From Minisyncoccota bacterium (GTDB lineage: Bacteria > Patescibacteriota > Minisyncoccia > Phycocordibacterales > JAGLPS01), in assembly GCA_023137185.1 (NCBI GenBank), contig JAGLPS010000002.1:47458-111457 (forward strand): a DNA stretch of 64,000 nucleotides. The letters are read 5' to 3'. The stretch's first letter is position 1. The number at the start of each line of letters is the position of its first letter. Under the pieces are notes generated by a model, which was given only the letters and a program-made list of their open reading frames with translations, searched no databases and was not told the origin of the DNA. Below are positions 2,541 through 2,661 of the stretch, in pieces. The position numbers and the translations under genes are program-made.

Positions 2541-2661
2541 CTCGTTAGAGACCACAGCTTTATGAATACAAAATACGTATTACAATATCAAAATATGAGT
2601 CGATTTATTACCAGTTTTAGCAATACTGACGGAAACCCAGAGGTTTCCTACTTCTAACAGG
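2541..2661 (+). promoter_or_regulatory. Conserved promoter + 5' leader module (copy 1 of 3), ending exactly at the rplB ATG
   Basis: TTTATG...TACAAT -35/-10-like boxes, ATGAGTCGA, hairpin GGAAACCCAGAGGTTTCC, then TACTTCTAACAGG-ATG. Homologous to 17872-18010 (minus) and 55580-55720. Confidence 0.55.

Follow-up and report, generated by a model that had tools for sequence, protein, structure and literature searches.

Three related elements precede rplB, rpmI and gatA

We studied a 64,000-nt stretch of DNA from a Minisyncoccota bacterium (assembly GCA_023137185.1, contig JAGLPS010000002.1, positions 47,458 to 111,457 of the forward strand; hereafter the window), in which one module occurs in three copies, c1, c2 and c3, directly before the genes for ribosomal protein L2 (rplB), ribosomal protein L35 (rpmI) and GatA (gatA). 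The genes on their 5′ sides encode L23, IF3 and GatC. All evidence reported here is computational. A preliminary description of the window had taken the module for a portable promoter and leader, with three copies about 75-90% identical that end exactly at the ATG codons of rplB, rpmI and gatA. We found the copies at these places with pairwise identities of 84% (c1-c2), 77% (c1-c3) and 89% (c2-c3), each copy being delimited from the first base of its 5′ repeat to the A of the host ATG (Table 1). A 43-nt degenerate core pattern gave exactly three matches in the window and none in 100 shuffles, and an nhmmer search of the window recovered c1-c3 at E = 6e-40 to 2e-48, with nothing further above noise. 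A search for more copies, which the preliminary description had suggested, returned none of this type beyond the three in the window, in 17 kb of flanks or in 1.3 Mb of relatives' DNA, where a three-copy nhmmer profile detected no module copy and the one weak match was the 3′ repeat shared with another miniature element.

The copies align from end to end, and their sole indel is a 19-nt palindrome common to c2 and c3. They are bounded by 12-nt terminal inverted repeats, TCCCGTTAGAAG...CTTCTAAYRGGA, of which 9-11 of the 12 positions are complementary, and the final A of the 3′ repeat is the A of the host ATG. As had been described for a YTTCTAAYRGG motif, all three copies end in ...TTCTAAYRGG directly before the ATG. 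RNAalifold paired the first ~10 nt of the module with the last ~10 nt, and in single-sequence folds a stem formed by the terminal repeats closed all three copies (z = -4.7 for c2 and -5.4 for c3). By eye, the mismatches in the closing stems of c1-c3 comprise five wobble and three non-wobble pairs. Copy c1 is moreover flanked by direct repeats. Its left ATGAA stands 7 nt after the rplW stop (TAA 2525-2527), where relatives start rplB (ATGAAA), and is therefore read as the probable native rplB start codon, retained on the 5′ side of the element.

Two internal structures had drawn attention to the module. The palindrome CCTGCCTACCGCAGGCAGG (CCTGCC...GGCAGG), assigned to copies 2 and 3, was indeed confined to c2 and c3, where it directly follows the 5′ repeat. 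The same palindrome occurs solo in a 25-nt form, AGCCTGCCTACCGTAGGCAGGTC, at 54998-55022, which suggests that it is a separate small nested repeat; its reading as an intrinsic terminator was rejected in view of this solo copy and the lack of a U-tract after the palindrome. The perfect 7-bp hairpin ascribed to the module held for c1 and c2 (GGAAACC-CAGA-GGTTTCC) but not for c3, in which the last stem pair is G-T. The reported inversion of the loop was correct, the c3 loop TCTG being the exact reverse complement of CAGA. The proposed check for covariation yielded no compensatory change across the three copies, with loop inversion as the only variation. None of the copies matched Rfam at gathering or at permissive thresholds; this, and the only superficial likeness of CUGACGGAAAC to a hammerhead core, led us to reject a self-cleaving ribozyme or riboswitch.

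The start of gatA had been reset to 55721, and homologues of 474-476 aa support a protein of 474 aa from that position. Gene calls differ here, with 486 aa in L111 versus 470 aa in another pipeline; the 486-aa call arises from an in-frame ATG supplied by the AATGACGG variant of c3 (55685-55720).

The copies are insertions at conserved operon junctions

The host junctions lie in conserved, normally tightly packed operons, rplW-rplB, infC-rpmI-rplT and gatC-gatA. The gap between the L23 and L2 genes spans 134 nt here, whereas most of about 35 Paceibacteria have 1-60 nt. At gatC|gatA there is no insert in L087, a relative in which synteny is conserved and GatA is 72% identical; gatC and gatA meet there as TAA-ACGC-ATG with a 4-nt gap. 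Likewise, infC|rpmI is empty in a relative with 72% IF3 identity (L138), in which the genes overlap by 14 nt. Presence/absence polymorphism at orthologous sites was seen for all three junctions (L087, L138 and the ~35 relatives). Given the absence at the same junctions in relatives, c1-c3 are lineage-specific insertions into operon junctions, which speaks against a conserved regulatory leader; the preliminary description had itself named such an absence upstream of these genes as an observation that would refute it. Of its portable regulatory cassette, the portable part stands, as an inserted and repeated cassette, whereas the regulatory part, a promoter or leader, found no support.

Exact-pattern scans gave no match in genome contigs and none in viral contigs, and in metagenome contigs two chance matches, one of them inside rpsA. 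The c1-c3 subfamily seems restricted to this lineage, or else too diverged for exact patterns. L2 is identical in GCA_030634405.1, and the nearest species-representative genome has an L2 identity of only 68%.

Equivalent positions are occupied by other elements. Three related genomes differ at gatC|gatA: one has an empty junction, one a full-length cassette (described below) and one a miniature element. A different miniature element, flanked by TGAA, stands at the rpmI ATG of L137, and L026 and L035 each carry a different one at the rplD ATG. Long rplW-rplB gaps in other Paceibacteria contain unrelated palindromic inserts (L005 8887-9002, L012 1850-2033, L013 9941-10001 and L049 482-613), the one in L013 being a perfect 46-nt palindrome; the rplW-rplB junction seems to be a general landing place.

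Translation starts in these operons have a distinctive layout. Of the 32 genes that start in the ribosomal-protein operon region (L001, window -6.8 kb to 13.5 kb; L111), none is preceded by a Shine-Dalgarno (SD)-like motif, versus strong AAGGAGG-type SD sites at 8 of 21 genes outside it, and stop-to-start gaps of 1-8 nt dominate in these operons.

A repeat-bounded GIY-YIG cassette shares the architecture of the copies

In L089, whose GatA is 73% identical, the gatC|gatA junction is occupied by an 87-aa GIY-YIG gene within a cassette that begins with TCCCGTTAGAGA directly after the gatC TAA and ends with TCTCTAACGGGA, which encodes the last residues, LSLTG. The full-length form measures ~280 bp. 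Its terminal inverted repeats of 12-13 nt, TCCCGTTAGAGA...TCTCTAACGGGA, bound a 10-nt spacer and a single gene of 86 codons, and the 3′ repeat itself serves as the final five codons (LSLTG) of this gene. A coding partner with the same termini was found in L089, L090, L101, L113 and L133. Seven full-length elements from unrelated contexts were all 279-282 bp long and contained the GIY-YIG open reading frame (ORF) alone. Their ORFs are ~70% identical in DNA and their repeats nearly invariant. Codons 83-85 (TCT CTA ACG) show a single codon use in all seven elements, as opposed to 4 of 41 other conserved-residue codons, indicating that the 3′ end is constrained at the nucleotide level. In four of the seven standard full-length elements, the GIY-YIG gene and the host gene share an ATGA, the TGA of which terminates the GIY-YIG frame.

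The encoded protein scored 60.1 bits against Pfam PF01541 (cut-off 22.6), and its closest structure was PDB 1ZG2 (E = 3e-11), of the UPF0213/YhbQ type with a catalytic domain only. The L089 protein had 2,350 homologues at E < 1e-5. The best 120 of these were 71-83% identical, bore source names from many lineages of the candidate phyla radiation (CPR), and conserved the GIY, YTG, R, H, E and N residues at a level of at least 95%. By these comparisons the cassette protein is a bona fide GIY-YIG catalytic domain of the UPF0213/YhbQ branch. The cassette is abundant in Paceibacteria. Among the same 120 homologues, 101 had a C-terminus of exactly ...LTG, and about two dozen began with extra residues, for example MNPVRD or MIPLE, that come from an upstream ATG read in frame through the 5′ repeat. 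A comparison with 50,697 phage records returned only distant GIY-YIG matches of 35-42% identity, giving no indication of a phage origin. Within 7 kb, L089 additionally contains a LAGLIDADG-like ORF and another small GIY-YIG gene, distinct from the first (14916-15524; 16004-16243).

The window copies retain the two ends of this cassette, namely its 5′ end (repeat, 10-nt spacer, start codon and ~11 codons) and its last ~40 nt. In c1 the repeat-10 nt-ATG spacing equals that of the full-length elements, and the codons after the ATG (..KYVLQYQN) resemble the N-terminus of the GIY-YIG family (FYTYILQSxK). The 3′ ~40 nt of c1 align to the ...KNRLKRFLSLTG codons of the cassette, apart from an insertion of 6 nt to which the GGAAACC hairpin is due. 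Beyond the ends, the copies do not align convincingly to full-length elements. With ~11 N-terminal and ~12 C-terminal codons left, c1-c3 encode no intact GIY-YIG protein. Taken together, these results make it very probable that c1-c3 are copies of a mobile element derived from the repeat-bounded GIY-YIG cassette, rather than a promoter or leader. Most likely they are internally deleted, non-autonomous derivatives that resemble miniature inverted-repeat transposable elements (MITEs): they are shorter than 500 bp without an intact nuclease gene, have inverted termini and occur in three copies per 64 kb at unrelated loci. As c1-c3 have one internal architecture in common, they stem from one deleted progenitor that spread later.

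A 31-codon ORF is open in all three copies. In c2 and c3 it runs from the relic GIY-YIG ATG to a TAA encoded by the repeat, and in c1 it comprises 40 codons when read from the native ATG at 2535. The 31- and 40-aa products matched no Pfam family. A leaderless upstream ORF or leader peptide was rejected, as substitutions fall evenly across codon positions and openness has a likelihood of ~14% by chance; we kept the frame as a translated spacer, the amino-acid sequence of which is not under selection.

Most elements of the family adjoin start codons, and more than half carry 4-bp direct repeats

A search of the collected DNA with the end motif yielded further miniature elements with the same or related termini, and 23 insertions, full-length or miniature, were examined in all. 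In 16 of them the terminal ...GGA is directly followed by the TG of an ORF start, and 15 of these 16 ORFs are at least 61 aa long (rplB, rpmI twice, gatA, secY, rpsE, rplD twice, rplV, topA and others). Of the 23 elements, 13 stand between perfect 4-bp direct repeats (TGAA six times, TGGA four times and TTGA three times), compared with ~0.09 expected by chance. A relaxed scan of 0.77 Mb of CPR DNA yielded 12 matches at 11/12 complementarity or better and seven repeat-flanked matches; the same scan of 0.67 Mb of non-CPR DNA yielded neither. Conserved inverted termini were found at more than 20 unrelated insertion sites, and the start codons of rpmI and rplD have each been struck twice, independently, by elements with different interiors.

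A model for integration and translation

We propose that T[G/T][G/A]A is the integration target of the elements and that 4 bp are duplicated on insertion. Genomes of this kind are gene-dense, and the insertions that survive would be those that sit at ATG[A/G]A starts or TTGA stops. At a start, the retained left copy of the repeat would keep the original initiation site of the host gene, and the final A of the element together with the duplicated TG would complete the right-hand ATG. The insert is predicted to fold into a stem closed by the inverted repeats, with the completed AUG at its foot. Ribosomes coming from the old ATG would read into the 5′ arm, melt the stem and expose the AUG; in copies without a left ATG, ribosomes terminating at the upstream stop 0-4 nt before the 5′ arm might open it instead. 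Opening of the closing stem by ribosomes would account for the tolerance of the insertions. The through-ORF would then be translated from the old ATG in c1 (40 codons) and from the relic GIY-YIG ATG in c2 and c3 (31 codons). In the full-length form and in c1-c3, ribosomes would stop at the repeat-encoded TAA 4 nt before the completed ATG, or alternatively, when the duplication is TGAA, at a TGA overlapping that ATG. The junction so supplied would mimic the stop-N(1-8)-ATG coupling already used by the SD-less operon. We put forward this stem-unmasking translation model tentatively, and hold its reinitiation detail with less confidence than the unmasking of the stem.

The GIY-YIG gene is the only one between the invariant ends, so its product is the presumed mobiliser, and we consider it rather likely that the nuclease is the mobilising enzyme. 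It is quite possible, although we stop short of favouring it, that the cassette represents an undescribed class of prokaryotic transposable element, with an 86-aa GIY-YIG nuclease only, integration at T[G/T][G/A]A with a 4-bp duplication, a start codon and initiation site borrowed from the host gene for its own expression, and miniature forms, c1-c3 among them, in essential operons of ribosomal proteins, secY, infC-rpmI and gatCAB across Paceibacteria. Such a class would use no DDE, HUH, serine or tyrosine recombinase, its repeats would overlap its C-terminal codons, and ribosomes would be handed back to the host gene via ATGA or TAA-N4-ATG. The cassette would then be the smallest autonomous transposable element known to us.

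Weighing the alternatives

Several observations weigh against our reading of the cassette and of its miniature forms. We know of no GIY-YIG nuclease that catalyses transposition. A flanking direct repeat is absent at c2 and c3, and the 4-bp repeat is lacking in eight further family members. No full-length element with repeats of the c1-c3 type was present in ~81 kb of this genome; the resident GIY-YIG gene (5740-6009) belongs to a sister subfamily, and its product is 49% identical to the L089 family protein. At 77-89% identity, the copies are old rather than recent. Our sample of insertions is biased to the neighbourhoods of ribosomal-protein genes, gatA and infC and to GIY-YIG genes. The inverted termini would fit a recognition site at the DNA level and an RNA stem equally, and the types of mismatch in the closing stems do not discriminate between them. 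Substitutions in the 31-codon frame are unbiased as to codon position, and its openness has a ~14% likelihood by chance. Several other miniature elements have an early stop in the frame that begins at the old ATG, so that read-through with reinitiation is not general.

The original proposal, a portable sigma-70 promoter and 5′ leader that would place three genes under one regulator or small RNA through the hairpin, draws on the position of the module directly upstream of three genes, on a TACAAT box and on a conserved hairpin beside the start codon; CPR promoters are moreover poorly known, which makes a consensus scan a weak test. That scan called the proposed -35/-10 pair, TTATGA-N15-TACAAT, in none of the copies. 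The spacer is 15 nt where 16-18 nt are expected, and the -35 match is weak. The '-35' TTATGA includes what was the start codon of the GIY-YIG gene, and the '-10' TTACAAT falls within codons ~6-8 of that gene; the hexamers thus correspond to the start and early codons of the parent. All three sites lie inside conserved operons and are free of the element in relatives, Rfam gave no match, the hairpin varies by loop inversion alone, and other family members hold equivalent positions with unrelated interiors and without the hairpin. We therefore regard this explanation as highly unlikely. The closing stem, or the GGAAACC hairpin together with the U-rich tract after it, has also been considered as a host-exapted RNA device, that is, an RNase III site, attenuator or mRNA stabiliser within the operons, whatever its mobile origin. 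RNase III processing has been reported for other bacterial MITEs, the Correia elements; the predicted closing stems are strong (z about -5 for c2 and c3), and the 3′ hairpin of c2 satisfies a loose terminator-like pattern. A function of this kind is improbable in our view, since the element is not conserved at orthologous sites in relatives and shows no covariation, and the presence of subfamilies with unrelated interiors at equivalent sites fits tolerance better than function.

Two further explanations accept an origin in mobile DNA. Homing-endonuclease genes cycle through gain, decay and loss, and a full-length cassette stands at the very same gatC|gatA junction in L089, so the three copies might be full-length GIY-YIG homing cassettes that decayed in place independently, with no transposition of a miniature form. 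Three separate decays would not converge on one deletion product, whereas c1-c3 have an identical architecture, align end to end with the 19-nt palindrome as the only indel, and are far more alike (77-89%) than any of them is to the full-length elements; we consider this account extremely unlikely. In the other, c1-c3 would be conventional MITEs moved in trans by a DDE transposase, and the GIY-YIG gene a passenger or an unrelated homing gene. Terminal inverted repeats that come with a short duplication of fixed size typify DDE transposition, and no prokaryotic GIY-YIG transposase was found in the literature searched. Set against this, the seven full-length elements (279-282 bp) have no ORF besides that for GIY-YIG, and the C-terminus of its product is encoded by the 3′ repeat. 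No transposase Pfam family was detected among 20 ORFs scanned in the middle of the window, or in the gene tables of flanking loci, which leaves a DDE-driven MITE unlikely. The derivation of c1-c3 from the GIY-YIG cassette remains our preferred explanation.

Relation to known systems

Bacterial MITEs that reside in operons include Correia/NEMIS of Neisseria, ERIC/IRU, RUP and the cyanobacterial Nezha. Like these, the elements described here are ~70-150 bp long, multi-copy, intergenic and presumably co-transcribed, have terminal inverted repeats and, in part, a short duplication, are predicted to adopt a fold closed by a stem and probably derive from a longer element with the same ends. They differ in that they have no sequence relation to them, that the longer partner is a 280-bp GIY-YIG cassette and not a DDE insertion sequence, and that the insertions adjoin start codons, with the last base of the element forming part of the ATG. 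REPIN-RAYT systems are similar in combining short, palindromic, non-autonomous intergenic repeats with a small nuclease gene between the same repeats. RAYTs, however, are HUH/Y1 enzymes (IS200-like), and REPINs are not tied to start codons and make no 4-bp duplications; between the repeats studied here there is no HUH/Y1 transposase, the sole ORF being the GIY-YIG nuclease. Rickettsia palindromic elements and T4 gene 60/mobE are likewise selfish inserts in expressed regions that translation copes with, albeit with other sequences and other mechanisms (in-frame insertion and ribosomal bypass), whereas the inserts here lie just 5′ of the ORF and complete its start codon. The closest solved relatives of the nuclease, UPF0213/YhbQ proteins (PDB 1ZG2 and 1YWL), also comprise the catalytic domain only (~90-107 aa) but are not known as mobile or repeat-bounded.

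T4-like phages carry free-standing homing-endonuclease genes of the GIY-YIG (seg) and HNH (mob) types (PMC2988022). As in the cassette, these are promoter-less nuclease ORFs between conserved genes, often without a ribosome-binding site of their own and coupled or overlapping, and RNA hairpins take part in the control of their translation (PMC2988022). Unlike the cassette, they encode larger proteins with DNA-binding domains, spread to one cognate locus through double-strand-break repair and flanking homology, and lack inverted termini, target duplications and miniature derivatives. GIY-YIG-encoding, non-intron insertions that do not look like homing have been described in CPR rRNA genes (PMC11270868). 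They occur in the same phylum, contain small GIY-YIG ORFs and are not group I or II introns, but no inverted termini, duplications, start-codon insertions or miniature copies were described for them (PMC11270868); these insertions may belong to the same family as the cassette. In the literature searched, mostly outside subscription journals, we found no repeat-bounded bacterial GIY-YIG element, no insertion that completes a start codon and no MITE of Patescibacteria, and such elements appear not to have been described previously.

Implications

If our interpretation is correct, the enzymes of prokaryotic transposition would include one more class, a minimal GIY-YIG nuclease, and insertion at, and completion of, a start codon would be a way for an element to be nearly harmless. 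Even the most conserved operons of streamlined CPR genomes have been colonised. For annotation, the elements create false N-terminal extensions, as in gatA (486 versus 474 aa) and in the GIY-YIG proteins (MNPVRD...), and they inflate 'intergenic regulatory' regions. The L137 contig ends (at 2224) 5 nt after the miniature element at the rpmI start, from which we suspect that the repeats may break metagenome assemblies. Alongside the SD-less ribosomal-protein region, they provide naturally occurring cases in which coupling by termination-reinitiation and by stem-unmasking could be studied in CPR bacteria. An 86-aa nuclease with a defined DNA end or target could become a tool, if its specificity is confirmed.

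Feature coordinates and other observations in the window

Table 1. Coordinates of the window copies and their parts, and of further family members in the window and in other loci
Feature	Locus	Position	Strand	Length	Remarks
c1 miniature element	window	2540-2662	+	123 nt	ends with the A of the rplB ATG
c1 left direct repeat ATGAA	window	2535-2539	+		strict 4-bp repeat TGAA 2536-2539
c1 right direct repeat ATGAA	window	2662-2666	+		strict repeat TGAA 2663-2666
c1 5′ terminal inverted repeat TCTCGTTAGAGA	window	2540-2551	+		
c1 3′ terminal inverted repeat CTTCTAACAGGA	window	2651-2662	+		last A is the A of the rplB ATG
c1 ORF	window	2562-2657	+	31 codons	stops at TAA 2655-2657 inside the 3′ repeat
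c1 hairpin GGAAACC-CAGA-GGTTTCC	window	2631-2648	+		
c2 miniature element	window	18012-17871	-	142 nt	between infC stop (18019-18017) and rpmI ATG (17871-17869)
c2 5′ repeat	window	18012-18001	-		
c2 nested palindrome	window	18000-17982	-		
c2 ORF	window	17971-17876	-		
c2 hairpin	window	17902-17885	-		
c2 3′ repeat	window	17882-17871	-		
c3 miniature element	window	55580-55721	+	142 nt	between gatC stop (55573-55575) and gatA ATG (55721-55723)
c3 5′ repeat	window	55580-55591	+		
c3 nested palindrome	window	55592-55610	+		
c3 ORF	window	55621-55716	+		
c3 inverted-loop hairpin	window	55690-55707	+		
c3 3′ repeat	window	55710-55721	+		
Full-length element, sister subfamily	window	5714-6032	+		inverted repeats CCCATTAGTAGAATTT...AAATCTCACTACGGGG; intact 89-aa GIY-YIG gene (5740-6009)
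Miniature, sister subfamily	window	6037-6131	+	95 bp	immediately 3′ of the full-length element; TTGA at 6033-6036 and 6132-6135; not at a start codon
Miniature, sister subfamily	window	13169-13300	+	132 bp	TCCCGTAGTGAAAAATGGCAT...ATGCCATTTTCTACTACAGGA; between rplO stop and secY ATG (13300); inverted termini of ~21 nt; TGAA at 13165-13168 and 13301-13304; subfamily also in L023
Miniature, sister subfamily	window	40453-40519	+	67 nt	directly after pilM stop; TTTGA at 40448-40452 and 40520-40524; ~40 nt upstream of the next ORF, so off any start codon
Miniature	L009			117 bp	adjoins rpsE ATG; no flanking repeat
Miniature	L011			80 bp	adjoins ATG of a 90-aa ORF; TGGA
Miniature	L026			119 bp	adjoins rplD ATG; TGGA
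Miniature	L035			116 bp	adjoins rplD ATG; TGGA
Miniature 1	L023			133 bp	adjoins ATG of an M50-like membrane protein; TGGA
Miniature 2	L023			129 bp	adjoins rplV ATG; TGAA
Miniature	L123			89 bp	4 nt before an ATG; TTGA
Miniature	L137	2100-2219		120 bp	adjoins rpmI ATG; TGAA

The genes rplB and rpsS, usually neighbours in the S10 operon, are separated in the window by ~2.7 kb with five ORFs (3505-6239), among which are the GIY-YIG gene and one that resembles pseudopilin genes of type II secretion (PF08334). The 540-nt spacer between an acyltransferase gene and gatC (54950-55260 region) is dense in perfect palindromes, among them one of 51 nt at ~55131-55181 and one of 41 nt at ~55217-55257; these may be repeats like the repetitive extragenic palindromic (REP) type or further debris of mobile elements. 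The ordinary RNAs of the window comprise a tmRNA at 22049-22470 (110.8 bits), with smpB nearby at 22537-22983, and seven tRNA genes.

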